Source: a virus. Taken from it: a DNA stretch of 55,171 bases. Of this stretch, positions 10,464 to 53,783 are shown one piece after another (the stretch's first letter is position 1; every line of letters begins with the position of its first letter). The notes beneath the pieces are model-generated. The model made no database searches, was not told where the DNA came from, and saw only the letters and a program-made list of their open reading frames with translations. The position numbers and the translations under genes were made by a program. The stretch lies in the IMG/VR virus record IMGVR_UViG_3300012971_000890; one strand, given 5' to 3'.

Positions 10464-10470
10464 TGGTCGT

Positions 10471-10507
10471 TTCCAAAAGCTGGCCAGGTGCTAGGCACCT
10501 GGCCAGC
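10471..10507 (-). terminator. terminator-like hairpin GCUGGCCAGGUGC-loop-GCACCUGGCCAGC followed by UUUU (copy 1 of a repeated element)
   Basis: 13-bp perfect stem, directly upstream of the 10463 start codon. Confidence 0.5.
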
Positions 10508-10523
10508 CTGCTGGGCTGCCCCT

Positions 10524-10691: not shown

Positions 10692-10747
10692 ATCTCAGCC
10701 TCCTTTCGGGCGATGGAAACAGGAACAGAACCACGCCACTTCTATAC

Positions 10748-13600: not shown

Positions 13601-13629
13601 ATTTTACTGTGGCAATCGCGGGTTGTAAA
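13601..13629 (-). promoter_or_regulatory. phage promoter, CTTTACAAC-N17-TAAAAT
   Basis: Upstream of the 12586..13512 gene. Confidence 0.65.
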
Positions 13630-14018: not shown

Positions 14019-15047
14019 CTACTTGATGTTGAGGGAGTTGCAGAAACGGGTTGCCACGTCCAATACTACCTCCCGATCCTGCAAACCGTCTACCAGATTT
14101 CGGGGGAATATCGCCGGCCCGTGCAGGGCACCCAGCAGCGCCGCCAGCATGGAGCCGTTGGTGTCGGTATCCCCACCAGCCGACACGCAGTCAAACAGGG
14201 CGTCGATGGAGAGGGGGTTCTTCACGAAGAACATATAAGTGAAGGGCAGCGAGTTGAAAATATAGCAGTTGCCGCCCCCGAAGGCTTCGCTGATCTTGGC
14301 CGCGTCCTCATAGTCCTGGTGGTTGTAGAGCAGTTTGAGGGCGGCGTGCAGGTCGTCGTCGCCTTCGTCTTTACTTTTGGGGAATCGCTTGTCCTTGCCC
14401 ATCAAAGCGGCACCCACCACGCAATTTATAAAGGAATGGGTGCGGAAGTCCTGTGGGTCGCTGGTAAGGCATTTGAAAACGGCGAACGCCTGGCACAAGC
14501 CGCTTTGCACGGCCATGCGGGCGTCATGGGTCATACGGGAAAAGTAGTCGATGGTTTGGAGGCTTTCGGCCCAGGCCGGCTCCTTGCATTCGGGGTTGGT
14601 AACGGCCATTTGCGCCCCGATGGGGGCGATCTTCATGGGTATGCCGTTGCCAGTGCCGCGCTTCGGCTCAGTCGTCTTCCCCGACTTGTTCCACGGCACC
14701 CCGGTGGCAAGGCGGGCAACCGCTTCTCTGGTTGTTTTTCCCCAGCCGCGCACGCTCTTCTGATATTCAACAATGTGCCACGCGGCGATGGCGTTCATGT
14801 CCACGGTGCCGTAGGGCGACTCGATAATGCCTTCGGCGGTGGCCTTGGTCAGTTGCCAGTCGTCGGTGGTGGTCCCCCGTGAGTCGTGGTCGAAGTATTT
14901 GTGGCTGGCGCAGTCCTCATAGGAGGTAATGCGACCGTAGCGCTTCTGAATATTTTCCAGGCTCGCGCTCTCGGCGGGCTTACCCAGGGCGTCCCCAATG
15001 GCGATGCCCAGGAACATGCCGTTGATCCGGTCGCGGGTGATGGTCAT
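14019..15047 (-). CDS. ADP-ribosylglycohydrolase (DraG/ARH3 family)
   Basis: N-terminal GMFLGIAIGDALG, then GWGKTT, GNG and SAGGDTDTN in the family order; start taken at MTITRDRI. Confidence 0.75.
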   Translation of the reverse strand: MTITRDRINGMFLGIAIGDALGKPAESASLENIQKRYGRITSYEDCASHKYFDHDSRGTTTDDWQLTKATAEGIIESPYGTVDMNAIAAWHIVEYQKSVRGWGKTTREAVARLATGVPWNKSGKTTEPKRGTGNGIPMKIAPIGAQMAVTNPECKEPAWAESLQTIDYFSRMTHDARMAVQSGLCQAFAVFKCLTSDPQDFRTHSFINCVVGAALMGKDKRFPKSKDEGDDDLHAALKLLYNHQDYEDAAKISEAFGGGNCYIFNSLPFTYMFFVKNPLSIDALFDCVSAGGDTDTNGSMLAALLGALHGPAIFPRNLVDGLQDREVVLDVATRFCNSLNIK

Positions 15048-15453
15048 TGCGTTTCTCTCCGGGCAGGGGTTTGAAGGCGTCATCGCCTGTCGCCAGGTCC
15101 ACCATTTCGCGGGCGGAAAGCGCCTTGCGCCAGGCGGCGAGCTTGTTGGCGAACTCCCGCTCGCCGGCCTCGCACAGTTTCTTCCACTCCAGACTCAGGA
15201 AGGCGTCCACCTTGCCGACGATGAAATCCTTCCACTGATGCAGCTTCATCTCGTATTCATCGTAGAGGCGAAGCTCCAGGGTTGCACATTTATTGCGCTC
15301 GGCACGCAACATCCGGTAGGCTTCTTCGTACCCTTCTTCGAGGGCACGCTCCATTTCATTCTTCACGTCCGAGAGTTTTTGCTTATATTCTTCTTCCAAC
15401 TCGGCACGCACTTCGGCCTTAATCGCGGCCCGGTCCATCCAGTAGTTTTCCAT
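14980..15453 (-). CDS. hypothetical coiled-coil protein (3-prime end overlaps the ARH gene start)
   Basis: 157-aa ORF; the last ~25 residues look like an alternate frame of the ARH N-terminus. Confidence 0.4.
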   Translation of the reverse strand: MENYWMDRAAIKAEVRAELEEEYKQKLSDVKNEMERALEEGYEEAYRMLRAERNKCATLELRLYDEYEMKLHQWKDFIVGKVDAFLSLEWKKLCEAGEREFANKLAAWRKALSAREMVDLATGDDAFKPLPGEKRNDHHPRPDQRHVPGHRHWGRPG

Positions 15454-15465
15454 AACTTGGCATCC

Positions 15466-16032
15466 TTATATTTTGCCCAACTTCTTATACATGAGCAGTA
15501 CCGGCCAGGTCTTGGAGGAAATCTTGTTACGACTCACGCAGAGGGCGCAGACCTCGTTGAAGTCCATCAAGTGGACCTCGATCTCCTCGGTGGCCTCGTG
15601 GTGGTCGTGGGACACGGTGCCCTCGCACTCGCAGTATACCATGACCACCGACTCGTCAGAAAGGCCCGCCGATGAATAGAGCGGCGGGCTGATGTCGGTA
15701 ATGCCGGTCAGCGTCAGCCCGGTTTCCTCGTGTAACTCGCGCTTGGCGTCGGATACCGCGTCGGCTTCGGCAAGGCCGGCGGGAAAGGCATACTCGGTGT
15801 CGGCCAGGGGGATGCGGTATTCGCGGATCAGAACCAGCCTGCGGTTGCCGGCGGGGTCAACATGGACGGGAATCACGATCACAGCGTCAGGCTTGGGCTG
15901 GCCCTGGCTCACCGGGTTCTTCTTGCGGGAGGCGAAAATCCAATCACCTTCCTGGCCCCGGTTCTTCCAGTGAACCGAGAACAGGTTAAGCCAACGAAAG
16001 TCGGTGAGTTTCTTAGGCGGTGTTACCTGCAC
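15466..16032 (-). CDS. Nudix hydrolase (ADP-ribose pyrophosphatase-like)
   Basis: Nudix box GLAEADAVSDAKRELHEETGL (Gx5Ex7REUxEExGU). Confidence 0.75.
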   Translation of the reverse strand: MQVTPPKKLTDFRWLNLFSVHWKNRGQEGDWIFASRKKNPVSQGQPKPDAVIVIPVHVDPAGNRRLVLIREYRIPLADTEYAFPAGLAEADAVSDAKRELHEETGLTLTGITDISPPLYSSAGLSDESVVMVYCECEGTVSHDHHEATEEIEVHLMDFNEVCALCVSRNKISSKTWPVLLMYKKLGKI

Positions 16033-16276
16033 GTTTATCCCCCAGAAGTTTGAACTTGATCCCGTTCTCCTCCATCAAGACAATTGTGGAGAGGTAGATC
16101 AAGTCGTCGGTGTCCACCCCGCAGACCCCGACCAGGAAACCAAGGTGGATGTCCTCCTCGGTCTTTTTCAAAAGGCCGATGGCATCAACCGCCGCGCGCC
16201 TCGCGGATCGGCGGTTGATGCGGACGTTGAAATCCCCACTGCTCACTATAAATTCGGGCATGTTTTGCTCCTTCAA
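16013..16276 (-). CDS. hypothetical small protein
   Basis: 87-aa ORF. Confidence 0.35.
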   Translation of the reverse strand: MKEQNMPEFIVSSGDFNVRINRRSARRAAVDAIGLLKKTEEDIHLGFLVGVCGVDTDDLIYLSTIVLMEENGIKFKLLGDKRAGNTA

Positions 16277-16294
16277 ATAACAGAGTCCCTTCTG

Positions 16295-17383
16295 TTAGCC
16301 GTCGTCGTCCGACAAATCAGCGAACAGCCGGTTGGGGTACTTCAGCTTGTATCCCTCCAGCAGACGAGTTTTGATGCCCTCCTCGACACTGCGCTTGTCA
16401 AACGCCGTCATGAGCGACCCAAAAATCTGCGGGTACTCATTCTTGGCGAACCAGGCATAATCCTTGCGCAGTTTATCTGGCGGCGGGTCACCCACCCCCG
16501 CCACTAGCATTATAGACGCTGCGGTTTCGCGGACACGCTTGGTTTCGTGCAAAAGGTCAAGCTGGGCTTCGGTGTAAATCTCGCGCAGCTTTTCCTTGTG
16601 GCGGTCGGGGGCCTTGGCGATTAAGTCATCCATTAGGTCATCGAAAACGACCTCGTAGAGACGATAGGCCGGGCGCATCAAAGCGTCCACCGCACGGTGG
16701 CGCTCCAAATACCAGTTGCACTTCGCCTTCACCCAGAGGCCATTCTCAAGAACCACAACGTAGCCCTCAAACTCCTCCTTGTCAAGATGGCCAAACAGAT
16801 CGGCAAACGCGAAGTCGTACTGCTGCGCGGCGTCAGGATAGCGGGGGTAATAACTGTACTCGCCCGTGGCCCGGCACCGGGAATGCAGGTACACCAGGCG
16901 GGGGCGGGGATATTCCACCACGATCTGATTGTGAGGGGCGACAAATTCAAAAATCGGCGTGCAGCCCCTTCGCACATCCGCCACAATGTCGTCCACCATC
17001 CCCAGGCTGCGGGCCAACCGCATCGCCTGCTGCGCCTGCGGCGTCTCGCAAGACATTCGCGTGGACGCCCGCAGATCGCCCTTCCATTCAAAGAAGTGGA
17101 CCATCGAGCCGTCGAGCTTTTCGTAGACCCTGCCGTTCAGATGGCAGAGCTTGTGGTACTGCGTGTCTTCCGTCTGACCCACGTTGAAGAACTTGTGGAG
17201 AGGCAGGGAAACGATTTCCCCGGTGGCCTCGGCAAAAGTGATGCCACGGAATTCGCGGCGGATGCCGTCGAACGACCCTGGGAACTGGAGCAGGTAGTTG
17301 ATGCAAACCAAGCCATCGTACCGTTTTACGAGGAATTCCTCACGGCCTTCCAGGGCAACCAGGGCTTCGGGCAGCTTGAGCAT
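16295..17383 (-). CDS. RNA ligase, T4 Rnl1-like family
   Basis: 362 aa (T4 Rnl1 is 374 aa); motif I EKLDGS, motif IV EGYVVV, motif V LWVKAK; a TTTACA promoter copy lies immediately upstream. Confidence 0.65.
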   Translation of the reverse strand: MLKLPEALVALEGREEFLVKRYDGLVCINYLLQFPGSFDGIRREFRGITFAEATGEIVSLPLHKFFNVGQTEDTQYHKLCHLNGRVYEKLDGSMVHFFEWKGDLRASTRMSCETPQAQQAMRLARSLGMVDDIVADVRRGCTPIFEFVAPHNQIVVEYPRPRLVYLHSRCRATGEYSYYPRYPDAAQQYDFAFADLFGHLDKEEFEGYVVVLENGLWVKAKCNWYLERHRAVDALMRPAYRLYEVVFDDLMDDLIAKAPDRHKEKLREIYTEAQLDLLHETKRVRETAASIMLVAGVGDPPPDKLRKDYAWFAKNEYPQIFGSLMTAFDKRSVEEGIKTRLLEGYKLKYPNRLFADLSDDDG

Positions 17384-17388
17384 ATCAC

Positions 17389-17417
17389 ATTTTACTTCGG
17401 ATTGTGCGGGTTGTAAA
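17389..17417 (-). promoter_or_regulatory. phage promoter, GTTTACAAC-N17-TAAAAT, preceded by an A-rich UP-like tract
   Basis: 5 nt upstream of the Rnl1-like gene start. Confidence 0.65.
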
Positions 17418-17486
17418 CTTGGGTTTTTTGTTTTGCAACCCTATATAGGTGCGGAGGGAACCGTGAAAACGCCAAGGACTTGCAGC

Positions 17487-17515
17487 ATTATCGCATCTAC
17501 CCCGAATTGTATCAA
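17487..17515 (-). promoter_or_regulatory. second, canonical sigma-70-like promoter TTGATA-N17-GATAAT in tandem
   Basis: About 100 nt upstream of the Rnl1-like gene. Confidence 0.4.
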
Positions 17516-17522
17516 GGCCGGC

Positions 17523-18185
17523 TCACAGCCTGTTAGCCTGTTCTTCTAAAGCGGCTCTCACTCGCGTGGCGTCGGCCTTTCCTCCTAGCTCCTTCAAGAT
17601 CGGGCCGATAAGCGAGTTGAGAGCCTGCTTTTTTCCTTTCTTGTAATCCTCGATCACCTTGGGTTTTTCCGCCAGGTGCCGGGCCACCGTCGCCTCCAGC
17701 ACGTCCGCCTGCATCTCGTTGAGGATGTCCAACTGAAGGATCGCGGTCAAGGCGTCCACCCCGGTCCAGCACACCCCGAAGACTTCTTTGACCTGGGTGG
17801 CCGACAACACGCCCTTGTGGCGTAGGAACAGGAGTGCCGGAATGTCCTCGCGCAGCCAGGGAAAATAATCCACCATCTGCTCAAACGTCGTCTTGGTTTC
17901 CTCCAACTTGGCCAGCATGTCGTTGGTCAGGAAATTAAAAACCAGCTTGCACCAAATGGGCCACTCCGGTCTGGCCTGGCAGTTATAATGGGGCATTTTG
18001 CACAGCCAGAATATTGCCTTGCCGAGCTTATCGTTGCTTTTCTCCCAATGCTCCTCCTCGGCGGTTAGCCAGAAGTCCACGCCGTCACCCTGGGGGCAGC
18101 CGGCGGCTTCCCACTTGTAATATGCGGCTGTACGGACTTCATGAAGCATCTGGCAGTCTCCGTATGTGCAGCACTCGGAGGCCAA
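17523..18185 (-). CDS. protein with DUF2934-like N-terminus and GatB/YqeY-like C-terminal domain
   Basis: C-terminus IEDYKKGKKQALNSLIGPILKELGGKADATRVRAALEE resembles the GatB/YqeY domain. Confidence 0.45.
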   Translation of the reverse strand: MASECCTYGDCQMLHEVRTAAYYKWEAAGCPQGDGVDFWLTAEEEHWEKSNDKLGKAIFWLCKMPHYNCQARPEWPIWCKLVFNFLTNDMLAKLEETKTTFEQMVDYFPWLREDIPALLFLRHKGVLSATQVKEVFGVCWTGVDALTAILQLDILNEMQADVLEATVARHLAEKPKVIEDYKKGKKQALNSLIGPILKELGGKADATRVRAALEEQANRL

Positions 18186-18321
18186 GTTCTACGGCTTTAT
18201 GGACAAACTCGCGCCGTGCTTTTTCCTCGTCCGGCTCGTTAGTGCTGGCTGGGCACCACTCGCTCTCGCCCAAGTCGTTGAGAACAAGTATTTCGTAGCG
18301 ATATTGATAGCTACCGCTCAT
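18139..18321 (-). CDS. small hypothetical protein (start MSGSYQYRYE...)
   Basis: Internal ATG overlapping the upstream gene stop by 11 nt. Confidence 0.3.
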   Translation of the reverse strand: MSGSYQYRYEILVLNDLGESEWCPASTNEPDEEKARREFVHKAVELGLRVLHIRRLPDAS

Positions 18322-18508
18322 TCCGGGTGATCTCGAACTTGAGCGTAGACAGGTCGTAACCCCGCGCCACAAGCTCCTGTAACCCCTGCTCGCTGAGTAT
18401 GCTGGCGAGCAGGCGGCGGTCGGGACCATTGGGGCCATCGAATAGCAACTTCTTTTCCTTTTCAAATTGCAACTTGCCCCAATAAGCCCGCAGCTTGGTT
18501 TTTTTCAT
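18311..18508 (-). CDS. small hypothetical protein
   Basis: 65 aa; ATG directly after a terminator hairpin. Confidence 0.35.
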   Translation of the reverse strand: MKKTKLRAYWGKLQFEKEKKLLFDGPNGPDRRLLASILSEQGLQELVARGYDLSTLKFEITRNER

Positions 18509-18515
18509 GCGTCTC

Positions 18516-18558
18516 CAAATAAAAAAGGCTGCCGTGCGGCTGCAACCGCACGACAGCC
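18516..18558 (-). terminator. rho-independent terminator (minus strand)
   Basis: 13-bp stem GGCUGUCGUGCGG/CCGCACGGCAGCC followed by UUUUUUAUUU. Confidence 0.65.
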
Positions 18559-18580
18559 CGCACCTGGGAGGGGTGTACGG

Positions 18581-20299
18581 TTACGCCGCCGCGATGTCGG
18601 GACGCAGCTTCTCGATGTTCAGGCCACAACGGCTGAGGCCCTTGCGTTCGATGAAGTCGTCAATATCGAAACTGGCGTTCATGCTGACGTGGCTCAAGTA
18701 GGTCTGATGAACCGCAGCCCGGAAATCATCGACGCGGACGAAGGTGCCCTTGCCGGTCTTGGAGGCCATGTCGCGCTTGAGGGCGCAGGACGTGGCCAGG
18801 TCCACGATGCCGGCGATCATGGCCCCGGAGATGCAGTCCCCCAGGGTCATGTAGTGTTCCCGACCGTCGCCATTCGAGAACTTGTAGAGGACACGCTCCT
18901 GGGAGAAAATCTCGGCGGTAGTATGCGCGGCGATCTCGGCCAAATCGGCGGGGCCGGTCGGGATGTTGCGCAGGTGAATGCGGAAGTATTCAATGGCCGT
19001 GCGGGTGGTCGGACGCCCGATGCGAACGTGGCGGTCAATGCGGCCCTCGCGCACCACGGCGGGGTCCAGGCTGTTGGGCTGGTTGGTGGCCAGCACCACC
19101 ATCACCTTGCTCGTCTCCAGGCCGTCCATTTCGGACAGGAACATGGGGACGATGGTTTTTTCCACGTCGGAGGACTTGCCGGTGCCACGCTGCGGCATGA
19201 TGGCGTCGGCCTCGTCAATGAAAAGCAGCGCCGGGTAGCCGTGCTTTTCGTGGTGTTCACGGCCACGGTCGAACAGTTCACGGATTTGCCGCTCGCTCTC
19301 GCCCACCCACTTGCTGAGCAGTTCCGGTCCCTTGACGTAAATGAAACCGGACTGCATCTGTGGCTTTTCGTGGATTTTGGCGATACTGAAGGCAGCCGCC
19401 TTGGCGCACAGGGTCTTGCCGCAGCCCGGAGGGCCGAAAAGGAGGACGCCCTTGGGTGGCCGCTTGTTGTAGTGGCGGTACAGTTCTGGGAACTGGTACG
19501 GCAATTCGATGGCCTCGACCAGTTGCTCCTTGGCATCGCGGACCCCGGCGATGTCGTCCCAGGTGACCTGGGAATCTTCCAGCAGGTTGAAGCGGTCGTT
19601 GCCCTCGCGCTCCAGCAGCCGGACGATCACGGTGTCGGAAGGGTCCAGAACCACACGGTCGCCGGGCTTGAAGGTCACGTTGGTCAAACCGGCCAAAACC
19701 TGGCGGGGCCGACCGTCCACGTCCACTTCGGCGTGGTCCTTGTCGATCAGGCGGGTGATGCCACAGATCGTACCCCCGCCGGTCGTCTCGGCCTTGTCGT
19801 GAATCTGGTACGATTGCAAATCGACCTTCACAACCTCGGACGGGTGAAACTTCTTGCCGGGGACGCCGTGGACCTCGTACTGTTGGCCGTTGAACACGAT
19901 GACGCAGTTGGTGCCATCATCCTTGCCGAGCAGCTTGACCTGGACGGGGGCATCTTTCAGACCGATGGAGAACTTGTGGCAAGCCCCGTTGGGCAGGGCC
20001 AGCGTCACGTTGTCTTCCTTGTCCACGCCCTTGGAGGCGATCTTGCCGTAGCGCGGGCGCTTATCGTTCTTGCGCCATTCGCGGTCGATAATGAGCATCA
20101 GGTCGCCCTGCTCGAAGGCTTCCAGGTTGAACTCATTACGAGCCTTCACCACCGTGGCGTAGACCAGGGGAGCCGCGAGGAGACGAGCCACGAAGCACTC
20201 GTATTCCAGAATGGTCCCCTTGGCTTCCTCCAACAGCGCCATCATCTGTTCTTCGTTCATTGGAATCCTCGCATCCATTCTAGTTCTCCCCATAGTCAA
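18581..20299 (-). CDS. AAA+ ATPase, ARC/Mpa (proteasome-associated ATPase)-like: N-terminal coiled coil, OB-like middle region, single AAA domain
   Basis: Walker A GPPGCGKT, Walker B LLFIDEADA, second region of homology; the 572-aa length and domain order fit ARC/Mpa. Confidence 0.75.
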   Translation of the reverse strand: MTMGRTRMDARIPMNEEQMMALLEEAKGTILEYECFVARLLAAPLVYATVVKARNEFNLEAFEQGDLMLIIDREWRKNDKRPRYGKIASKGVDKEDNVTLALPNGACHKFSIGLKDAPVQVKLLGKDDGTNCVIVFNGQQYEVHGVPGKKFHPSEVVKVDLQSYQIHDKAETTGGGTICGITRLIDKDHAEVDVDGRPRQVLAGLTNVTFKPGDRVVLDPSDTVIVRLLEREGNDRFNLLEDSQVTWDDIAGVRDAKEQLVEAIELPYQFPELYRHYNKRPPKGVLLFGPPGCGKTLCAKAAAFSIAKIHEKPQMQSGFIYVKGPELLSKWVGESERQIRELFDRGREHHEKHGYPALLFIDEADAIMPQRGTGKSSDVEKTIVPMFLSEMDGLETSKVMVVLATNQPNSLDPAVVREGRIDRHVRIGRPTTRTAIEYFRIHLRNIPTGPADLAEIAAHTTAEIFSQERVLYKFSNGDGREHYMTLGDCISGAMIAGIVDLATSCALKRDMASKTGKGTFVRVDDFRAAVHQTYLSHVSMNASFDIDDFIERKGLSRCGLNIEKLRPDIAAA

Positions 20300-21057
20300 C
20301 GGGCCTTGACTAAGATTTCCTTGCCCGTGTCCTCAAAATCATAGCCGCCACTCGACGGGACGGCAATGGTCTTGAGCGGGGCCTTGGTAACGCGCACGTT
20401 GTTGTTAACGTCCACCGTGTAGCTGGCGAGCGGCTTGCCGGCGGTCTTCCCGGTGGGCGTGGGCTTCTGCACAACCAGAGTGGTGCCGTCCTTGGTCCAC
20501 ACGGCCACCTTGTCCTTCGGCTTGAAGCCGCAGGCGCGGAGGTACTTGGCGGGGATGCACACCGTCCCACGGGCGTCGGGCTTACGGCCCTTCTTGGCCG
20601 TCCCGGCGGCTAACTTCGGCAAACTGGAAGGTGGGGCGAGGCTCGCCGTACCGCCACCGCCAGAGCCGTTGTCACTGGACCCGTCGTCGGCATTGGGGTC
20701 AGCTTGGCCCTGGGCGTAAAAGCCACTGACCGCCGCCGCCACGTCCGCCGGATTCGAGTTGGCCGCAGGGCGAGGCTTGGAGTGCGGGTTGAACGTCGTC
20801 GGGTCATCGGTGTGGCGATGGTAGAGGAACGCCGGCATGGGCGCTCCCGCGATGGGGATGAGCGTCCGGGTGTAGTCCGGCCCCATCAACCCGCGACCGT
20901 AGTAGTCGTGGACCACCTGCTTGATGTTGTCGTGGCGTTCGCGGTGGCCCCGGTTCCTGACCTCCTTGGTCACGTCGTAGGCGGTGAACATCTCACCGTC
21001 TTGAACCTTGTCATTGACCACCGACTCGATCACGCTCTGAAGGGCTGCATCAACCAT
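20296..21057 (-). CDS. protein with C-terminal AbrB/SpoVT-type swapped-hairpin DNA-binding domain
   Basis: C-terminus TVCIPAKYLRACGFKPKDKVAVWTKDGTTLVVQK; Gly/Ser/Ala-rich linker; TTTACA promoter copy upstream. Confidence 0.5.
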   Translation of the reverse strand: MVDAALQSVIESVVNDKVQDGEMFTAYDVTKEVRNRGHRERHDNIKQVVHDYYGRGLMGPDYTRTLIPIAGAPMPAFLYHRHTDDPTTFNPHSKPRPAANSNPADVAAAVSGFYAQGQADPNADDGSSDNGSGGGGTASLAPPSSLPKLAAGTAKKGRKPDARGTVCIPAKYLRACGFKPKDKVAVWTKDGTTLVVQKPTPTGKTAGKPLASYTVDVNNNVRVTKAPLKTIAVPSSGGYDFEDTGKEILVKAR

Positions 21058-21080
21058 TGTTCGTTCCTTTCTGTTACGCT

Positions 21081-21109
21081 ACTTTACTGCGAGTCTTCGC
21101 CGTTGTAAA
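21081..21109 (-). promoter_or_regulatory. phage promoter, CTTTACAAC-N17-TAAAGT
   Basis: Upstream of the AbrB-domain gene. Confidence 0.6.
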
Positions 21110-21120
21110 GCAGAACTTTT

Positions 21121-21486
21121 TTAGTCGTCGTCATCAATGCTGCGGTGTCTTGGGACGCCTTGTGGGTATTTAGCCTTGAGCCGGCGCTCCAATATAACCC
21201 ACTCGATAGCTTCTTGCACATCGGGCCAATATATGGCGGGCTGATCCCATTCCCCCTCCGTGGTTTCGTCCAGGGACTTGAGGATGCGCGATTCAAAAAA
21301 CTCGCCGCCGTCCACATCTCGCTGGACCAAACGGCACATGGTCCAGAACAGGATGTCATTGGCTTCGTCAAGGGACCGGGCCGGGATGTCATACGGCCCG
21401 GTCCACTTGTAGTTTTTCTGCATCGTCTCCAGGTCGTAGACGACGTAGCAAAACTTCATCGGGAAGGTTTCAAGCTTGCGTCTCAT
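21121..21486 (-). CDS. hypothetical protein, translationally coupled to the PARP-like gene
   Basis: ATGA overlap at 21483-21486 with the PARP-like stop. Confidence 0.45.
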   Translation of the reverse strand: MRRKLETFPMKFCYVVYDLETMQKNYKWTGPYDIPARSLDEANDILFWTMCRLVQRDVDGGEFFESRILKSLDETTEGEWDQPAIYWPDVQEAIEWVILERRLKAKYPQGVPRHRSIDDDD

Positions 21487-23105
21487 GCCGCAAATTCCAC
21501 GAGGTAGCGAAGCTCGAACTGGTTGCGCTGGAACACGATCCACTCGTTGTTCTGGACCTGCGAGTGGCCTCCCTTTCCGAAGACGCAGTGGCAGCCAGCC
21601 GGCGGGGCGGTATAACCACGCGGACCTGGCGCGACGTGCGGACGGCCCAGCACCACGTCACCCGCGAACATGAAAGCTTCACGGCCCCGCACGGCACCGC
21701 CGCCGGACGACCAGTAGCTCCCCCGCAGGCTGGTGTAGCCGGCACTTTTCTTCCAGTCGTCGGCCCAATAAATGCCGGGGCCGAACATAGCGCCGGTGAT
21801 GACCACGCCGACCAACTGACTCGGCATACGCAGGTTCTCCCGCAGGATGCCGGTGACGTTGACCGAGCGGGTGCCGTGGAACAGCAGGCCGGTGTTGCTG
21901 TCACGGTAGCGGCGGATGTCGTCGCTATTTTGCAAATCCGCACGCTCCGGCGGCTGGAACAGGGGCCGCTCGTCAATGCGATGCTTGCCCTGGACGATGC
22001 CGGCCTGCGCCCCCACCACCAACTTGTGGTCGCCGTGGCGCTCGACCCGCCAGGCGTTCTTGATTTTCATGGCTCCCAGGTAGCCGTGCTTGTTGGCCGT
22101 AGCGCGGGGCCACCAGCCGTAAAGCCACTTGCCCACATCGCTCTTGGGGTCGATCCACTCCATCTCGATGGGCATACCACCGAACGGGTCGTGCTGATGC
22201 TTCACGTCGTCCACGTCCGCAGCGACCGCCAGAGCCGCCTCAAAGGCGTCCAGGTCCGCCTGCCAGCCCAGGATGTTGCTGGTGTTGAGAATCCAGTCCT
22301 GGGGCGGGCAGTGCAGCGGCTTCTTCTTGGGGATGCGACCGTACATGAGCGCGGTCAAGTGCTTCAGGTCGTCATCGGCCACCTGGGCGTCCACGCTGTC
22401 GCCCACCACCAGCAGGCGCTTCTGGGCTTCGGCCAGGAAGTCGCGGGCCTCCTCGATGGCCGCTTGGGTGGGGATGGAGGCATCGGCCATGCTGCCACGG
22501 GCGTACTGCACCGTCGCCACGTTCAGGTCGCGCATGAGCGAGAGCGTATTCTGGTCCGCCGCACGGGCCGGGGCCTTGATGACCTTCTTCTTGGCACCTT
22601 TTTTGTCGTCCGCCGGGGTGTCGTCGGGCTTGTCCTTCGGTTTCGCCCCGTCGTTGGCCTTGATGGTGCGGGCGTCCGGCAGGCCAGTGCTGCGGGTCGC
22701 CATCGCCCGGACGAGGTAGCAGTCCTTGCCGGCGCGGGCACGCAGCACCCGCTTGCTGGCCACCTGGACCCACTCGCCCCGCTTGTCGTTCTTGTCGTGG
22801 AGTTGCGAAGCGAATTCACGCTGGGCGTCCGCCTCGCCGGAGCAGACCACGAACTGGAAGTTGGGGTTTTTCGCCCCGGTGCGGCCCCACTCGAAGTAAA
22901 CGGCCCACTGGCCGCTCGTCTTATGCTTGACGACCGCCGCGTGGTAGTATTTGTTTGAGTCCTTGCCGTCCTGGGTGAAACACCCCATGTCGGCAATCTT
23001 GCAACTGTCGAAGTCCCCATCCGCGATGGCGGGTGGTCCGAAGCACTGCCAATCGTTGGGGCTGGACCCGTTCGGGTAACTGTTCTTCTCGATCTTCGAT
23101 CCCAT
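21483..23105 (-). CDS. poly(ADP-ribose) polymerase-like ADP-ribosyltransferase with N-terminal WGR domain
   Basis: WGR motif (WAVYFEWGRTG); catalytic H-Y-E triad context LLFHGTRS, GPGIYWADD, QNNEWIVFQ; RBS GGAGAG; TTTACA promoter copy upstream. Confidence 0.75.
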   Translation of the reverse strand: MGSKIEKNSYPNGSSPNDWQCFGPPAIADGDFDSCKIADMGCFTQDGKDSNKYYHAAVVKHKTSGQWAVYFEWGRTGAKNPNFQFVVCSGEADAQREFASQLHDKNDKRGEWVQVASKRVLRARAGKDCYLVRAMATRSTGLPDARTIKANDGAKPKDKPDDTPADDKKGAKKKVIKAPARAADQNTLSLMRDLNVATVQYARGSMADASIPTQAAIEEARDFLAEAQKRLLVVGDSVDAQVADDDLKHLTALMYGRIPKKKPLHCPPQDWILNTSNILGWQADLDAFEAALAVAADVDDVKHQHDPFGGMPIEMEWIDPKSDVGKWLYGWWPRATANKHGYLGAMKIKNAWRVERHGDHKLVVGAQAGIVQGKHRIDERPLFQPPERADLQNSDDIRRYRDSNTGLLFHGTRSVNVTGILRENLRMPSQLVGVVITGAMFGPGIYWADDWKKSAGYTSLRGSYWSSGGGAVRGREAFMFAGDVVLGRPHVAPGPRGYTAPPAGCHCVFGKGGHSQVQNNEWIVFQRNQFELRYLVEFAA

Positions 23106-23156
23106 GACGTTCTCTCCAGGGGTAAAGTAACATCCGTCTGCTGTTGATATTACATC

Positions 23157-23185
23157 GGCAGAAGCCGGTTGTAAATTAAGAAATC
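23157..23185 (-). promoter_or_regulatory. phage promoter, ATTTACAAC-N17-TAATAT
   Basis: Upstream of the PARP-like gene. Confidence 0.65.
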
Positions 23186-23189
23186 CGCG

Positions 23190-23465
23190 TTACTCCAGCC
23201 CCGCCCGTTCCCGCAAATGGCGCAGGCAATGGATGCACACCGGGCGAAGGAAATCCAGCATCTTGTCGTAGCCGCCCAGACGCTCGCGGCGGTCCTCGCA
23301 GTCCGGGCAGATGTAGTCGAAATCAACCTCCCGGTCGTCGTTGTTCTCGATAGGCAGCCACTCTGTTGTCTCTGGCCGCTCCATCAAGTGGATGCAGATG
23401 ATGGCCCAGGGTGCCCAGGTGTGATCGGCACACCGGATCAGGTTGGGGGCTTTGTTCTTGGCCAC
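23190..23465 (-). CDS. small Cys-rich protein
   Basis: 91 aa with CPDC ... CIHC. Confidence 0.45.
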   Translation of the reverse strand: MAKNKAPNLIRCADHTWAPWAIICIHLMERPETTEWLPIENNDDREVDFDYICPDCEDRRERLGGYDKMLDFLRPVCIHCLRHLRERAGLE

Positions 23466-23480
23466 GTTAGACTCCTTTCG

Positions 23481-23993
23481 TCACAACTCCACGTCTACTT
23501 TCTCTGTGTACAGGCCCGCCGCCATCCAAAGCGCCTTCATGGCAGTGTTATCCAGTCGGTCGTCCACGGTTTGTATCGGGGGCACGTCGGGAAATTCTCG
23601 CCACGCCTTTCGGGCGATCCTCGCCGCCTTTTGCACCGTCTCCGGTATCTTAGTTAAGTCGTGCGTATGGGCGTGATAACACACCTTATCACACGGTTGA
23701 CCATGCCACACCCATCGCTGGAACCAGATCGAATAGCCGTAGCGGGGTCGCCCTGTGTCAATATCGTTGCCCCAGCCCATGTAGGTGAGCCGGTCTTCAC
23801 TGATCCAGCCCAGCTTGGTCATCACCAGGCGAATCTTCACGGGGTCCGGTTTCCTCGGCATTTTCGGGGTCCGTGGAAAATAAAAGGGGCCAACAGTCAC
23901 GGCGCTGCTTCCCGGTCTTGCTGTGTCGGCGGTTGCATTCGGGGGCAGCTTCGTGAATGATCCGCATGGTGTCTCGAAATAAACCAACCACAC
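23481..23993 (-). CDS. hypothetical protein (true start probably internal)
   Basis: The N-terminal part of the track ORF overlaps the next gene. Confidence 0.4.
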   Translation of the reverse strand: MWLVYFETPCGSFTKLPPNATADTARPGSSAVTVGPFYFPRTPKMPRKPDPVKIRLVMTKLGWISEDRLTYMGWGNDIDTGRPRYGYSIWFQRWVWHGQPCDKVCYHAHTHDLTKIPETVQKAARIARKAWREFPDVPPIQTVDDRLDNTAMKALWMAAGLYTEKVDVEL

Positions 23994-24279
23994 AGCACCG
24001 AGCGTAACTGTATATCAAGGGCGGCAGCCACGCCCGTCCTTGTTCCAGCTTCTCCAACTTTTTATCGCGCACCAGCGTCAGGCAGTACATGAGCAGCGAG
24101 GGGTCGGCAGCCAGATGCTTCTTGAGGCGCAGGACAACATCCTTGCACTCGTTCCAAACCTTCATGACGAAGTGGGTAACTTTCTGGTCCTTCGCCTCCA
24201 TCAGCAGCTTGTTGAGAGTGACGTGGCTGGGGCGGCTGCCGATGGTGCCCACGTCAATATGTCCGCCATGCCGAGTCAT
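23797..24279 (-). CDS. hypothetical protein
   Basis: 160-aa ORF. Confidence 0.35.
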   Translation of the reverse strand: MTRHGGHIDVGTIGSRPSHVTLNKLLMEAKDQKVTHFVMKVWNECKDVVLRLKKHLAADPSLLMYCLTLVRDKKLEKLEQGRAWLPPLIYSYARCCVVGLFRDTMRIIHEAAPECNRRHSKTGKQRRDCWPLLFSTDPENAEETGPREDSPGDDQAGLDQ

Positions 24280-24602
24280 TGCTCACTCCCACTGTGACTA
24301 CTGATGCCCGTCAGCAGGCGGGTGTCCTGGGTGCAGGGCCGAATTTCTCCGGCTGGGGTGGTCCATGTCAAACGCCTGTATTCGTAGTACAGACGGTAGC
24401 GGTAGAAATAACCGCTATATTGAACGTGGTACTCCTCGATCTCGAACGACCCCTCGCGGTGCATGTCAAGCAACACCCCGTTGGACAGCACCCAGGACAC
24501 CGCCAGAAAGTCGTCCAGGTGGAGTGACATCTCACAGGTAGTTTCTCGTGAGAAACGCGATGACGCTGCGCATCCCCGCAGGAATATCAATTGCCACGGC
24601 AA
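24276..24602 (-). CDS. hypothetical protein (likely start MSLHLDD... at 24530)
   Basis: An internal ATG gives an ATGA overlap with the next gene. Confidence 0.35.
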   Translation of the reverse strand: MPWQLIFLRGCAASSRFSRETTCEMSLHLDDFLAVSWVLSNGVLLDMHREGSFEIEEYHVQYSGYFYRYRLYYEYRRLTWTTPAGEIRPCTQDTRLLTGISSHSGSEQ

Positions 24603-24720
24603 ACTCCTTGCCCTCCCGTTCGGCCTTTTCCTTCAAGACTTCCTCGACCCGGCACTCCAGCGCCAAACCGAGTTTTTGACATTCCTCGTCCGTGAGGGTA
24701 ACGTTTGCTTGAAATACCAC
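24532..24720 (-). CDS. small hypothetical protein (62 aa)
   Basis: Compact ORF between the macro-domain gene and 24276..24602. Confidence 0.35.
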   Translation of the reverse strand: MVFQANVTLTDEECQKLGLALECRVEEVLKEKAEREGKEFAVAIDIPAGMRSVIAFLTRNYL

Positions 24721-24730
24721 TTTCTGCTCC

Positions 24731-25243
24731 TTAGTTGGGAGGCGTCCAGCCCGGAGGAAGGAAGCGCCGGAGATAAAAGACCGTGACAGGCAGATCGTTC
24801 TCCAACCAGTGGCGGGCGATCAGTTCCTCGATTTTGTTCCAATCACCCCCGGCGATGCCTGAACCGAAAAGCGGGCAGCGAATTTCCACGTCGCGGCCCG
24901 CCTGGATATATTGTTTCGCCGTGGTGGCGACGGCCTTGAGGCACGCCTCCAGCGAGTCGTAAATCAAGGGCGGGTTATGCCCGAAGTGCTGCGCCACCAT
25001 GTTGGCAACCACCACGTTGCCGTCGTCGCTGGGGACGAACTGCGTTTGCCCCAAGGCCAGGTCATGATTGGCGAGGTAAAGGGTTTTGGCGACGGGAAAC
25101 TGCTCGGCCAGGGGCAGGACGAAACCGGCACCCCACACCTTCTCGTCATTAACGACGTGCGGGATGATGACCAGTTTCGGGTCGTGGGGGTCGAGCGAGG
25201 CGAACAGGTCGCCCTCGACGTAGGCGGGATGGGTCTTGGCCAC
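24731..25243 (-). CDS. macro-domain protein (ADP-ribose binding or hydrolysing)
   Basis: VVNDEKVWGAGFV ... CPLFGSGIAGGDWNKIEELI matches the macro-domain Gly-rich loops. Confidence 0.7.
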   Translation of the reverse strand: MAKTHPAYVEGDLFASLDPHDPKLVIIPHVVNDEKVWGAGFVLPLAEQFPVAKTLYLANHDLALGQTQFVPSDDGNVVVANMVAQHFGHNPPLIYDSLEACLKAVATTAKQYIQAGRDVEIRCPLFGSGIAGGDWNKIEELIARHWLENDLPVTVFYLRRFLPPGWTPPN

Positions 25244-25516: not shown

Positions 25517-25545
25517 ATTCTACAGACGGATTTTCCGGTTGTAAA
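25517..25545 (-). promoter_or_regulatory. phage promoter, CTTTACAAC-N17-TAGAAT
   Basis: About 270 nt upstream of the macro-domain gene. Confidence 0.6.
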
Positions 25546-25551
25546 GCAAAG

Positions 25552-25737
25552 TTATTCCTTCGCCGGCTCTTCTGCCTCGTGGGAGCAGTAGCCACAGCGA
25601 GCGCCGGTGAGAATGCCGCCGCAAGTGCAGCAGTAGCGAGTCAGGAAGTTCTGAATGAACTCCAGGCGGTCTTCCGGGCGGAAGTGCTTCTGCCGCTCCA
25701 GAAACGCCTCATATTCCTCCTTGGCGGACTGCAACAT
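25552..25737 (-). CDS. small zinc-ribbon protein
   Basis: CCTCGG ... CGYCSH. Confidence 0.4.
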   Translation of the reverse strand: MLQSAKEEYEAFLERQKHFRPEDRLEFIQNFLTRYCCTCGGILTGARCGYCSHEAEEPAKE

Positions 25738-26380
25738 CGACGCCTCCGATCAGGGTGTTTGGGGTGAGGGGCTGCTTCATCCAGTGCTGGGAGGTTTGGA
25801 CGTGTCGGGGCCGGACGTACTTGGCGACGTGCAGGCCGAAATCCTGGTAGGGAAAAGCATCACGGGTGCGAACGACGTAGCCTTCGCAAGTGTGTCCGAA
25901 CGCCGAGGCGCGGGGCCACAAGTCGCGGATGCGGTCCTCGTCCCAGATTCCCTCATATAAAACCGGCACCGTGGGCACGTCCAGCAGACAGGCCCACTCC
26001 TGGGTGTCGTCCCAGGAAAGACAGGTGTTTCCGTCGTCATAAATACCGATCAGGTAGAAATAAGCGGTCAGGCGGTCGTAGAAGATGCTGTGCTTGGCGT
26101 ACAGGTTTTCACCACATAATCGCCAGCCCTGCGGGATGTTATGGCGAATTGAAGCGTGGACTTGCTTGACCAAAGTGCGGGAAGGATGGCTGCCTGAACT
26201 GCGGGAACGGGCGTGGTAGTGGATCGGATACATGGACGTATTTTCACCGTCCAGCTTCTCGGTCATGATGACTTGCTTGCCGAGAAAATGGTTCACATCC
26301 CCCAGCACCCTGTCGTCCTGGTCGGACTTTCGGCTCCAGGGAAAGTGGGGCGTTCGCGGGTACTTGTAAAGCCCGTTCAT
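25709..26380 (-). CDS. ATP-dependent RNA ligase (PF09414/Rnl2-like minimal ligase)
   Basis: YKYPRTPHFPWS N-terminus; motif I TEKLDGEN; motif IV CEGYVVR; motif V HVAKYVRP. Confidence 0.6.
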   Translation of the reverse strand: MNGLYKYPRTPHFPWSRKSDQDDRVLGDVNHFLGKQVIMTEKLDGENTSMYPIHYHARSRSSGSHPSRTLVKQVHASIRHNIPQGWRLCGENLYAKHSIFYDRLTAYFYLIGIYDDGNTCLSWDDTQEWACLLDVPTVPVLYEGIWDEDRIRDLWPRASAFGHTCEGYVVRTRDAFPYQDFGLHVAKYVRPRHVQTSQHWMKQPLTPNTLIGGVDVAVRQGGI

Positions 26381-44913: not shown

Positions 44914-45903
44914 TTAGGAGAGCAGGTCGCTGATCGAGTCCTCCTGGTGGATGCGCCGGATGGCCTGCGCAAACAGATTCGTGGTGTCAATAATCTTCAG
45001 GTTCTTCTGAAGGGCGGGCTGGACGCGAAAGGGTCGGATCGAGTCGGTGATGACCGTGCGTTCGATGCCCGCCAGGTTCTCGTTGGCCCTGCCGACGAAC
45101 AGGCCGTGGGCGGCACAACAGCCCCAAACCTGTCCGCCGTCACGCTCCACCGCTTGCCGGGCCTCCAGCATGGTCTTGGCACTGGCAATCATATCGTCAT
45201 ATATTACCACAAGCTTGCCACGAACATCGCCGCCTATCTTGTGCCCCTTGATGGTCCGTCCCGCGTGTTCCTTATCCAGCACCGCCACTTCGATGTCCAC
45301 CCCTAGAATCTGGCTGAGTTTGTTGCGGAAGTAGCGCGAGCGTGGCCCGCCCCCCGCGTCCGGGGCCAGCACACAGAGCCGCTTGGGGTCGTGGCAGTTC
45401 TCGGCCACATAGCGGGCAATAAGGTTCTTCGCCTCCAGATGGTCGGTGGGGACATCAAACGTACACTGGAAGGCCGCGAGGTTGTGTACATCCATCGTAA
45501 GGATGCGGTCCACCCCCACGCTCTGAAACAGGTACTTGATGTACTTTTGGGTAATAGGGGCACGGCTTTCCGTCTTCCGGTCTTGCCGTCCATAGCAGAG
45601 GTAGGGGACGACCGCAGTGACTCGCCGGGCACTGGCGTCCTTGAGACTGCCGATGAAAAACAGCAGCTTTAGCAGTTTATCGGAAACGGACTCGTGGGTG
45701 CAAGAGTAAAGGGACTGGATTACAAACACGTCCCACCCCCGCACGTTGACGTTGGACCGGAGGTAATACTCCTGGTCATCGAAGCAGGTTTCCTCGTGCC
45801 GGCACAGCGAACCGTCCGTCTCGCACTGGCCCGCCAGGTGGCCGGCGACCTTGGCGGCGAAGTCCTTGCTGGCGTCCAGACCGAAAAGGCGAATCCCGTT
45901 CAT
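44914..45903 (-). CDS. ribose-phosphate pyrophosphokinase homolog (PRPP synthetase / possible ADP-ribose pyrophosphokinase)
   Basis: RVTAVVPYLCYGRQDRK and VVIYDDMIASAKT in Prs positions. Confidence 0.75.
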   Translation of the reverse strand: MNGIRLFGLDASKDFAAKVAGHLAGQCETDGSLCRHEETCFDDQEYYLRSNVNVRGWDVFVIQSLYSCTHESVSDKLLKLLFFIGSLKDASARRVTAVVPYLCYGRQDRKTESRAPITQKYIKYLFQSVGVDRILTMDVHNLAAFQCTFDVPTDHLEAKNLIARYVAENCHDPKRLCVLAPDAGGGPRSRYFRNKLSQILGVDIEVAVLDKEHAGRTIKGHKIGGDVRGKLVVIYDDMIASAKTMLEARQAVERDGGQVWGCCAAHGLFVGRANENLAGIERTVITDSIRPFRVQPALQKNLKIIDTTNLFAQAIRRIHQEDSISDLLS

Positions 45904-52676: not shown

Positions 52677-53783
52677 ATGCTTACAGAACTGGTCCGAAAA
52701 ATTCATGATTCGGCTCCGATGGGCGTGCTGGCCATCACCGGCGGCGGCACAGAAGCTATCGGGGAACTCCTGCGCCACGGCAACGGAAGTAAAACCCTGC
52801 TGGAAGCCTTTGTCCCATATGCAAACGCATCCTTCGCCGGTTTCCTGGGCGGGAAACCGGACCAATATTGTTCGGAGGCCGCAGCCCGCCAATTGGCGAT
52901 GGCCGCGTTCCAGCGAGCAAAGGCTCTGACCGAGAGCAACGTCGCCCTTTTCGGCGTGAGCGCAACCTGTTCTCTGATGAAGGAAAACGAACGCCGAGGA
53001 CGGGAACACCGCGTCTTCGTGGGTCTTCAAACGGTTGTGAAAACCGTTTCTATCAGCGTCCGTCTGACCGCCCGGCGAGAGCGGGAGAATGAGGAACAAG
53101 TGGCCTGCCACCTGATCCTTAATGCGGTGGCGGAAGCATGTGGTATTCCTGACCGACTTCCCGCTACCGACGACCCCCTCATGAGGCGTGAGGCTGAATG
53201 CACCCCGGAGCAGTATAAACTTCTCACCGGGGAAGTCAAGCAGTTTTTCCTCCCGTTTCACTCGCCTTTGCCAACAACGCCGGTAATTTTCCCTGGCTCG
53301 TTTCATCCCGTCCACGACGGGCACCGAGCCATTGTGTCACACGCCTGTCAACTTACCGGCAAGCCGGTGGTGGCGGAAATCTCCGTAAATACAGTGGATA
53401 AGCCCGCGCTTGACTTTTTTGAAATGAACAGCCGCCGCGAGGCTCTGGAGCGGGAGTCGTGCTTTCATGGCGTTTATTTTACCAACGCGGCAACTTTTAT
53501 CAACAAGTGCGCTTTGTTCCCCGGACACACATTCCTGGTCGGCTTCGACACCCTGCTCCGCATGGCCGATCCCAAGTTTGCCTCCGTCCAGGGAACCATC
53601 AACGCCCTGGCCAGCAATGACATCCGAATCCTGGCCTACCCGCGTCCCAACCCGGACGGCAGCCTGCCGCCCCAAGGCGAATTCGACGCCCTGCCCGATG
53701 GCCTGAAGGCGCGCACCACGCTGGTTGCGAATTTTACGCCGGTGGCCGTGGCGTCCAGGGACATTCGCAAGGCGGCACCCTAA
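52677..53783 (+). CDS. CinA C-terminal (PncC-like) domain fused to an NMN/NaMN adenylyltransferase (NadD-like) domain
   Basis: N-terminus GVLAITGGGTEAIGELL ... FVPYANASFAGF (CinA_C-like); C-terminus FPGSFHPVHDGH (HxGH motif) and VAVASRDIRK (ISSTxIR-like); start chosen at the third ATG, which has a GAGAGGA RBS. Confidence 0.65.
   Translation: MLTELVRKIHDSAPMGVLAITGGGTEAIGELLRHGNGSKTLLEAFVPYANASFAGFLGGKPDQYCSEAAARQLAMAAFQRAKALTESNVALFGVSATCSLMKENERRGREHRVFVGLQTVVKTVSISVRLTARRERENEEQVACHLILNAVAEACGIPDRLPATDDPLMRREAECTPEQYKLLTGEVKQFFLPFHSPLPTTPVIFPGSFHPVHDGHRAIVSHACQLTGKPVVAEISVNTVDKPALDFFEMNSRREALERESCFHGVYFTNAATFINKCALFPGHTFLVGFDTLLRMADPKFASVQGTINALASNDIRILAYPRPNPDGSLPPQGEFDALPDGLKARTTLVANFTPVAVASRDIRKAAP

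Follow-up and report, generated by a model that had tools for sequence, protein, structure and literature searches.

A full-length WGR-PARP homolog, its partner gene and ADP-ribose erasers in a clade of huge phages

Biology of poly(ADP-ribose) polymerases (PARPs) endogenous to bacteria and phages is almost unexplored, in vitro activity being available for two bacterial PARPs only: the enzymes of Herpetosiphon aurantiacus and Clostridioides difficile CD160 perform DNA-dependent poly(ADP-ribose) (PAR) synthesis in vitro, which is reversed by the cognate PARG (PMC8120803). In phages, ADP-ribose (ADPr) writers are known alongside NAD+ synthesis and processors of the macro, ARG, NADAR and Nudix families, with an enrichment in jumbo phages (Iyer et al., 2021, 2022); ARG domains were reported in only ~5% of jumbo phages (Iyer et al.). 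Here we analysed a stretch of viral DNA of 55,171 nucleotides, IMG/VR record IMGVR_UViG_3300012971_000890 (hereafter the window), with the focus on a PARP homolog encoded at 21483..23105 on the minus strand and on the genes around it between 14.0 and 25.2 kb. An earlier inspection of the letters alone (the sequence-only reading) had proposed an ADP-ribosylation toolkit in this interval, with NAD-supply enzymes elsewhere in the window. The generic phage ADP-ribosylation toolkit and the bacterial WGR-PARPs are already known. What appears to be new, as far as we found, is a full-length PARP with WGR, a modelled helical domain (HD) and an ADP-ribosyltransferase (ART) domain conserved in a huge-phage clade, a dedicated partner gene, the alternation of eraser families near the same writer, and the presence of sister PARPs in type XIII retrons.

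Compared by description and not by sequence, the bacterial WGR-PARPs share with the phage PARP the WGR, the ART domain with the catalytic Glu and a helical region that in the phage protein is seen in the model, and one phage relative also carries a microbial-type PARG. The phage PARP differs from them in being core to a huge-phage clade and in having a partner with an 'Ndom' and an AbrB-like domain; the erasers in the window are an ADP-ribosylglycohydrolase (ARH) and a TARG1-class macro domain, not PARG. Human PARP1, PARP2 and PARP3 contain a similar WGR-HD-catalytic (WGR-HD-CAT) module, whereas the phage PARP has neither zinc fingers nor BRCT and its WGR-helical linker is disordered. The PART/PARPs of jumbo phages such as XacN1, Xoo-sp13 and Klebsiella FBKp34, which carry the annotation poly(ADP-ribose) polymerase and were mentioned by Iyer et al. 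(2021, 2022), are of the same ART family but in our comparison match only the last ~135 residues of the phage PARP (36-41% identity, 25% coverage), not its WGR/helical region. T4 Alt, ModA and ModB are mono-ARTs of the R-S-E clade, whereas the phage PARP is an H-Y-E enzyme. A search for the terms 'retron' and 'WGR' in Iyer et al. (2022) gave nothing, and neither the fixed PARP-Ndom-...-ARH block nor its relatives in retrons are described there. In type XIII retrons (the Mx162, Mx65, Ne144, Sa163 class), the canonical accessory protein is also WGR-like and the reverse transcriptases (RTs) share the Ndom with the phage partner; the phage has no RT, SWIM or HEAT/ARM gene, and the sister clade of its PARP stands directly beside such genes in bacteria.

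The phage PARP, its partner and the erasers

The PARP homolog is 540 aa long, and its translation contains VYFEWGRTG. The sequence-only reading had assigned to it a WGR motif followed by a PARP catalytic domain, which Pfam confirmed: WGR (PF05406) was matched at 5.1e-9 over residues 43-108, above the gathering score, and PF00644 at 1e-18 over residues 398-514 (68 bits; cut-off, 26.7). The PHROGs match was phrog_23333 (3e-19). A PDB sequence search gave human PARP2 as the top hit (8e-12) and also PARP1, the identity to the human enzymes PARP1-3 being ~17-19%; the segments LLFHGTRS, GPGIYWAD and NNEWIVF of the phage protein align with the His, Tyr and Glu of PARP2 and PARP1. Across 41 aligned homologs these residues (H410, Y446 and E521) do not vary, and neither do Y457 and the WGR-motif residues W73, R75 and G77. 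The H-Y-E triad is thus retained as had been proposed, and the catalytic Glu is not replaced. The accompanying prediction of poly- over mono-ADP-ribosylation from this triad is over-stated, the triad being necessary but not sufficient for PAR synthesis. PARP3 and PARP4, for example, have H-Y-E and yet are mono-transferases.

The AlphaFold2 (AF2) model of the protein (mean predicted local distance difference test score, pLDDT, of 81.9) consists of a WGR domain (residues 1-137), a disordered segment (154-180), a helical region (185-305) and an ART domain (313-540). The helical region was found in the model and gave no match to Pfam PARP_reg. The top Foldseek hits were WGR-HD-CAT modules of PARP1 and PARP2 on DNA breaks (7s6h and 6x0l), with an E-value of 1e-21 and template modelling (TM) scores of 0.56-0.66 over ~550 aligned columns. 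On account of the modelled domains and these structural matches, the protein is taken as a complete PARP2/3-like or bacterial-type enzyme, more than a bare ART domain. It is expected to be a nucleic-acid-activated NAD+-dependent ADP-ribosyltransferase.

The window has 59% G+C, and its plausible genes are nearly all encoded by the minus strand. By megablast, none of 50,697 phage records matched the 11-kb interval, and kinship is visible at the protein level only. A PARP with 62-64% identity is encoded in LR756511.1, a published 595-kb 'uncultured phage', with which the window is collinear for a ParB-like protein, AAA_33, FolD-Prs, M50, ClpX, a sigma factor, the PARP, the ortholog of the ORF at 20296-21057 and the ARH. 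PHROGs matched neither eight large unknown ORFs nor the ORF at 20296-21057(-), and phage identity therefore rests on the collinearity with LR756511.1, by which the window is assigned to a huge phage of this clade. More than 120 near-full-length homologs of the PARP were found, with identities of 59-95% in the best 120, many of them on contigs of 476-669 kb; 23 further viral contigs in IMG/VR contain a PARP homolog. The phage PARP belongs to a large and well-conserved full-length family, fixed in a clade of 0.4-0.67 Mb phages; the host of the phage in the window is probably a planctomycete.

Downstream of the PARP gene, in the phage and in bacterial loci alike, is a partner gene that the sequence-only reading had missed along with its retron-linked relatives. 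It lies at 20296..21057(-), and its product had no match in Pfam, PADLOC or PHROGs. The orthologs share an N-terminal domain of ~90 residues (Ndom), a variable low-complexity linker and a C-terminal domain of ~85 residues. The C-terminal domain is weakly similar to the swapped-hairpin fold of AbrB/SpoVT/MazE (PDB AbrB, 2.6e-3; Pfam MazE_antitoxin, 0.013). With the first ~90 residues of a retron RT that adjoins a bacterial PARP on a Gemmataceae contig (see below), the Ndom shares 49% identity (E 1e-26). The partner, with its AbrB-like end, is a candidate dedicated PARP regulator.

Three putative processing enzymes, the ARH, a Nudix hydrolase and a macro domain protein, are all encoded less than 11 kb from the PARP. 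The ARH/DraG-family gene at 14019..15047(-) had been called correctly. Its ORF (14019-15083) matches Pfam ADP_ribosyl_GH (PF03747) at 2.9e-46 over profile positions 1-286 of 287, and the start at 15047 is favoured over that at 15083 by homolog alignments, which begin at residues 10-13. In the PDB it matches MJ1187 (5e-18) and aligns with DraG as well, with the TDD and GGDTD metal-site motifs kept and aligned; it scores under the DraG and Tri1 equivalog cut-offs of NCBIfam. The Nudix assignment of 15466..16032(-) also stands, PF00293 being matched at 7.1e-8, above its cut-off, and a RELHEETG box being visible in the translation. Against the curated NudF, NudE and YffH models, the Nudix protein scored 31, 19 and 18 bits, respectively, with cut-offs of 169, 248 and 80; its similarity to NudE and ADP-ribose diphosphatase is weak and below the cut-offs, and an ADP-ribose specificity is only a guess.

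The macro domain proposed at 24731..25243(-) stood by family profile and structure, but not by the Pfam Macro models. The 170-aa product matched no Pfam family even at E<=10, and PF01661 (Macro) is carried by only one distant homolog. A family profile built from 39 members matched BT1257 (4e-53), SCO6735 (5e-50), ALC1 (1e-19) and TARG1 (5e-15) in the PDB. The AF2 model (pLDDT 95.1) resembled 2fg1, 5e3b, ALC1, TARG1 and the DarG macro domain in Foldseek with TM scores of 0.7-0.85. H29, N32, G40, N81, Q85 and a GSGxAGG loop are conserved in the family. Profile and model place the protein as a divergent member of the ALC1/TARG1/SCO6735 class, which holds hydrolases as well as readers.

We then mapped the window proteins onto all loci fetched for comparison (numbered with L). 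In the phage group with 59-65% PARP identity, the genes are [RNA ligase], PARP, partner, [Mpa-like AAA], [Rnl1], [Nudix] and ARH, with optional genes in square brackets; this order from PARP onwards is present in L004, L045-L050, L062, L064 and L066, and L049 and L050 have a gene order identical to that of the window. The ARH is downstream of PARP in 11 phage-type loci, and the Nudix gene recurs in L001, L004, L048-L050 and L064. The macro gene adjoins PARP in L060 and L068. Recurrence of the same genes around PARP in many huge-phage contigs indicates that the linkage of PARP, ARH, macro and Nudix noted in the window is not due to chance. In a second viral group (L052-L058, L063, L065 and L067) with a 53-55% identical PARP, NADAR is encoded 3-10 kb downstream of PARP (L053-L056, L058 and L063), and a 669-kb phage (L001) has NADAR together with a microbial-type PARG upstream of PARP. 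No PARG or NADAR homolog was found in the 55-kb window with the L001 proteins as queries.

NADAR reverses ADP-ribosylation of guanine bases. Its presence near the second-group PARPs hints at nucleic-acid targets. The strongest argument here for a functional tie between erasers and PARP is that different eraser families replace one another near the same PARP, an argument weakened to a degree by the common descent of these phages; with four interchangeable families (ARH, macro, NADAR and PARG) near one writer, a writer-eraser link is credible from the gene neighbourhoods. These four families are unrelated, and their alternation provides a natural experiment.

Relatives beside type XIII retrons

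A scan for cellular relatives of the PARP, with one genome per GTDB species, gave 38 close loci, 38/38 of which are in Planctomycetota; they include the Neorhodopirellula pilleata Pla100 isolate and a 7.8-Mb chromosome. An RT of the RT_XIII type stands beside PARP in 23 of the 38 loci, and in 18 the Ndom is fused to it. A separate Ndom-AbrB gene adjoins PARP as in the phages in eight bacterial loci; L028 and L029 have an RT without Ndom, followed by PARP and then by a separate Ndom gene, and L032, L036 and L041 contain the two-gene PARP-then-Ndom arrangement without a retron. On a 4.03-Mb Gemmataceae contig, a PARP with 63% identity is directly downstream of a 650-aa RT that has the NAxxH, VTG and YADD motifs and matches PADLOC RT_XIII at 6e-155. 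The RT_XIII matches given by PADLOC ranged from 3e-150 to 2e-181. PADLOC further matched HEAT-ARM_XIII (3e-185) and SWIM_XIII (1e-174) among the L043 neighbours, and WGR_XIII (E=0, 1021 aa), SWIM_XIII (8e-236) and RT_XIII (2e-181) among those of L028. By these profile matches, the neighbours of the bacterial PARPs are bona fide type XIII retron components.

The accessory proteins of type XIII were described as a 'WGR-like plus HEAT/ARM' protein and a SWIM protein, with no PARP listed (Mestre et al., 2020), and no PADLOC v2 model matches PARP. In L043 (2912-11623), ARH, HEAT-ARM_XIII, SWIM_XIII, an RT_XIII with an extra N-terminal domain and the WGR-PARP are encoded co-directionally; similar clusters are present in L012, L016-L019 and L030, with a variant in L028/L029, L019 being Neorhodopirellula pilleata Pla100. 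Judged from gene content, the L043-type cluster is a type XIII retron with PARP at the effector position, unlisted in Mestre et al. (2020) and PADLOC v2. We found no paper that associates a retron with PARP, WGR or an ADP-ribosyltransferase; literature coverage is incomplete and novelty is not proven. The link bears on type XIII retrons themselves, whose function and WGR-containing accessory protein lack an explanation, and is open to testing in the cultured Pla100 (L019), which carries a retron-PARP cluster.

Homologs of the RT core, SWIM and HEAT/ARM were found neither in the window, nor in any phage locus, nor in the whole of LR756511.1. Rfam gave nothing at gathering score in five bacterial retron loci, where no dedicated search for a type XIII non-coding RNA was made. 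In a neighbour-joining tree of 47 PARPs with p-distance-type corrections, the phage clade was recovered in 96/100 bootstraps and the RT-fused bacterial clade in 90/100; the latter is derived, and the loci with a separate Ndom are basal.

An ARH gene heads the cluster in many Pirellulaceae loci. In L027, the PARP-Ndom pair is immediately followed by a shorter second PARP-like ORF (10320-11759), which is 30% identical to the catalytic domain and has its place upstream of a WGR/HEAT - SWIM - RT retron set.

Readings of the block

We lean, with somewhat more confidence than doubt, towards reading the interval of 14.0-25.2 kb as a conserved accessory block around a full-length PARP, in which PARP, Ndom partner and erasers work together. 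The WGR domain would recognise a nick or an end in nucleic acid and so lift the autoinhibition that the helical domain exerts; the ART domain would then move ADP-ribose from NAD+ to a protein, possibly the PARP itself, or to nucleic-acid ends. The partner, through its Ndom and AbrB/MazE-like parts, may bind the PARP and restrain or direct it in an antitoxin-like manner. The ARH and the TARG1-class macro protein would take the marks off, and the Nudix enzyme would split the freed ADP-ribose. In evolutionary terms, PARP and Ndom-AbrB may form an ancient module of two genes, shared by planctomycetes and their huge phages. The bacterial module would have been built into type XIII retrons, with the Ndom fused to the RT and the PARP at the effector place, whereas the phages would have kept the pair without RT, SWIM and HEAT/ARM as part of a fixed block with erasers. 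During infection the block may serve to take over the host, to modify DNA or RNA ends, to exclude competitors or to interfere with a host retron-PARP.

Several points weigh against this reading. The analysis establishes the domain identities, the conserved triad, the fold, the synteny and the sister clades of phage and bacterial PARPs; we infer DNA-dependent activation of the PARP, its interaction with the Ndom and the action of the erasers on its marks, and the interaction only from co-occurrence and the RT fusion. The AbrB assignment of the partner C-terminus (E ~3e-3) is weak, and the Ndom was not detectable in the second viral group (L052-L058, L063, L065 and L067). The synteny among related phages is partly inherited by shared descent and not independently selected. 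The ARH and Nudix genes belong to an RNA-ligase string outside the PARP transcription unit. The ARH of the retron clusters and that of the phage share no more than ~25-29% identity, and their descent from one acquisition was rejected. The PARP tree is not a maximum-likelihood tree, and the host phylum is assigned indirectly.

A tentative and less probable extension concerns the retrons. The WGR-PARP may be the effector of a hitherto undescribed, PARP-bearing type XIII variant in Planctomycetota whose RT gained a PARP-binding Ndom, and huge phages of these bacteria may turn effector, partner and a varying set of erasers against the host retron, so as to neutralise or subvert it. They could do so with a surrogate antitoxin or a decoy, or by erasing the marks that the host makes. 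If true, phages and bacteria would be engaged in an arms race in which PARP chemistry is the weapon.

It is rather unlikely that the block is a counter-defence, in which ARH, macro, Nudix and NAD enzymes mainly undo ADP-ribosylation or NAD+ depletion by the host, its retron-linked PARP included, and the phage PARP and Ndom are decoys or dominant-negatives, the Ndom-AbrB protein for example occupying the host PARP in place of the RT N-terminal domain. The presumed Planctomycetota hosts do hold 56-65% identical PARPs within type XIII retrons, the phage Ndom is homologous to the RT N-terminus although the phages have no RT, and a precedent has been reported in phage-encoded orphan antitoxin-like ADPr erasers directed against DarTG (PMC11825919). 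However, all catalytic residues are strongly conserved in the phage PARP, which a pure decoy would not need. We found no demonstrated defence phenotype of type XIII retrons in the literature consulted, Mestre et al. suggest domestication of some type XIII members for other functions, and the identity of the host is unproven.

The gene string that contains the ARH argues for a different role, unlikely but still a serious contender: ARH, Nudix and macro may serve the two RNA ligases and further RNA-repair genes, acting on ADPr-1''-phosphate, NAD caps or small molecules of that kind, and be mere neighbours of the PARP in a region of accessory genes. Iyer et al. place macro, Nudix and NADAR proteins in the RNA repair of phages; their argument that ARG domains favour macromolecular conjugates (Iyer et al., 2022) speaks against this role. 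Rnl1, orf87, Nudix, orf157 and ARH are tightly packed with short or overlapping junctions behind one promoter-like site, so that ARH and Nudix appear to be co-transcribed with the T4-type RNA ligase, and the window also encodes a second RNA ligase, a GatB/YqeY-domain protein, a metallophosphoesterase and an AAA_33 kinase. But the ARH directly follows PARP-Ndom without a ligase in L003, L045-L047, L062 and L066, and the eraser families swap beside the same PARP.

The least probable alternative is a type-II-like toxin-antitoxin pair of PARP and Ndom-AbrB for superinfection exclusion or competition, with the PARP mainly a NAD+-consuming toxin: the AbrB/MazE-like C-terminus, the retron-free PARP-then-Ndom pairs of L032, L036 and L041 and the fact that retron effectors are commonly toxins restrained by RT and multicopy single-stranded DNA (msDNA) favour it, but the AbrB/MazE evidence is weak, PARP and partner have separate promoter-like sites with another ORF in between, and conservation of the pair extends, as part of a bigger block, to an entire clade of huge phages that look lytic.

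Neighbouring genes, promoter-like sites and NAD supply

The ORF between PARP and partner (21121..21486, minus strand; 121 aa from M20) is lineage-specific, with no homolog in any fetched locus and no Pfam match. Its ATG overlaps the PARP stop codon (ATGA), the junction being GCGGCATGAGACG. The partner gene is followed by an Mpa/ARC-like AAA ATPase (18581..20299, minus strand; Pfam AAA 2.3e-35), whose start overlaps the partner-gene end. This ATPase matches NCBIfam pup_AAA at 3.5e-94, under the cut-off, and is closest to the actinobacterial proteasome ATPase Mpa/ARC, here phage-encoded. It recurs after the Ndom in L001, L004, L049, L050, L062 and L064. A strong intrinsic-terminator-like hairpin of 15 pairs with a T-run follows the AAA gene at 18526..18559(-). 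PADLOC gave no match for the phage PARP, partner, macro, ARH and Nudix proteins and only generic IetA/TRIP13 ATPase models for the AAA.

The ligase that heads the Rnl1-orf87-Nudix-orf157-ARH string (16295..17383, minus strand) is of the T4 Rnl1 type (Pfam RNA_lig_T4_1, 2e-16; TIGR02308, 1.7e-27). The second one, of the PF09414 family (25709..26380, minus strand; Pfam RNA_ligase 1.3e-30), is conserved upstream of PARP, being found there also in L001, L049-L051, L062, L064 and L066. With these two ligases, the RNA-repair-like set scattered over the minus strand includes a GatB/YqeY-domain protein with DUF2934 (17523-18185) as well as the metallophosphoesterase and the AAA_33 kinase (ORFs 35934-36596 and 47089-47616).

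The motif TTTACA-N17-TANNNT occurs in eight copies in the window, all on the minus strand, where 0.04 would be expected. Four were located by the motif scan upstream of genes of the block: TTTACA-N17-TAATAT at 23147..23175 for PARP, TTTACA-N17-TAAAGT at 21081..21109 for partner and AAA, TTTACA-N17-TAAAAT at 17389..17417 for the Rnl1...ARH string and TTTACA-N17-TAGAAT at 25517..25545, ~270 nt upstream of the macro start. The copies suggest one promoter class for the part of the genome covered by the window. The other four, of the extended form TTTACA(AC)-N-TAnnnT (13601-13629, 30583-30611, 39480-39508 and 44871-44899), precede other genes, such as those of the sigma factor (29576-30547) and ClpX (38148-39476); a Zn-ribbon ORF (44393-44884, minus strand) is just downstream of the site at 44899-44871. 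The proposal that every member of the toolkit is transcribed from such a promoter or coupled to one held for PARP, partner and the Rnl1 string and, at ~270 nt, for macro, but not for the Prs gene, which has no site of its own and overlaps folD.

This PRPP synthetase (Prs) gene, at 44914..45903(-), is part of a FolD-Prs block conserved in LR756511.1 and IMG/VR relatives; it is peripheral to the PARP block, 22 kb away. Three Prs domains were matched, and the NCBIfam model TIGR01251 scored 232 bits against a cut-off of 113. To the described systems NARP1 (Adps + Namat) and NARP2 (Nampt + Nmnat) the window compares in a Prs-family enzyme and a nucleotidyltransferase but not in a Namat or Nampt gene; of the Adps proteins of NARP1, 97% have a Namat/Nampt homolog within ~10 genes. 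No NAPRTase/Nampt-type match was found in any window ORF of at least 140 aa. The homology to PRPP synthetase put forward for this gene thus held, whereas the suggested function as an ADP-ribose pyrophosphokinase, the Adps of NARP1, was rejected in view of the missing Namat and the ordinary Prs score.

The CinA_C-NMNAT fusion proposed at 52677..53783(+) was not borne out. The ORF is a real gene, a 100% identical database protein being in existence, and lies 30 kb away on the strand opposite to the PARP block. Its product belongs to the HxGH nucleotidyltransferase superfamily, and the N-terminal domain is uncharacterised; only the generic CTP_transf_like segment was detectable (6.8e-5), with a NadD equivalog score of 15 bits against a cut-off of 315 and no CinA match, and a profile of the protein gave weak PDB hits to PPAT (~5e-4) and NaMNAT (~7e-3). 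The NadD/PncC (CinA_C/NMNAT) labels come solely from source-given names and one homolog with PF02464. The NAD-supply arm of the toolkit is therefore weak, the Prs being ordinary, distant and without Namat, and the 'NMNAT' being generic, far off and on the other strand.

No tRNA was found in the window, and Rfam gave nothing there at gathering score. A hybrid sensor kinase at 31040-33283(-), with several PAS-family matches (best PAS_4, in three stretches), HisKA, HATPase and receiver domains, is absent from the collinear part of LR756511.1. The ORF at 40755-41717(+) has a C-terminal Endonuclease VII domain (1.4e-23) and lies in the sole stretch of lower G+C (0.545, ~40-42 kb), where the AT skew is positive; the gene has the look of an insertion of the homing-endonuclease type. 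Another ORF, 40636-41211(+), is 62% identical to LR756511.1. Further nucleotide-metabolism genes on the minus strand, in addition to prs, encode a PurE-like AIR carboxylase (28391-28813) and FolD (45900-46889). Residues 1-53 of 62 in a small ORF at 44208-44396(+) align with PDB CsrA (carbon storage regulator) at 1.4e-3; this CsrA-like ORF overlaps the 3' end of the Zn-ribbon ORF.

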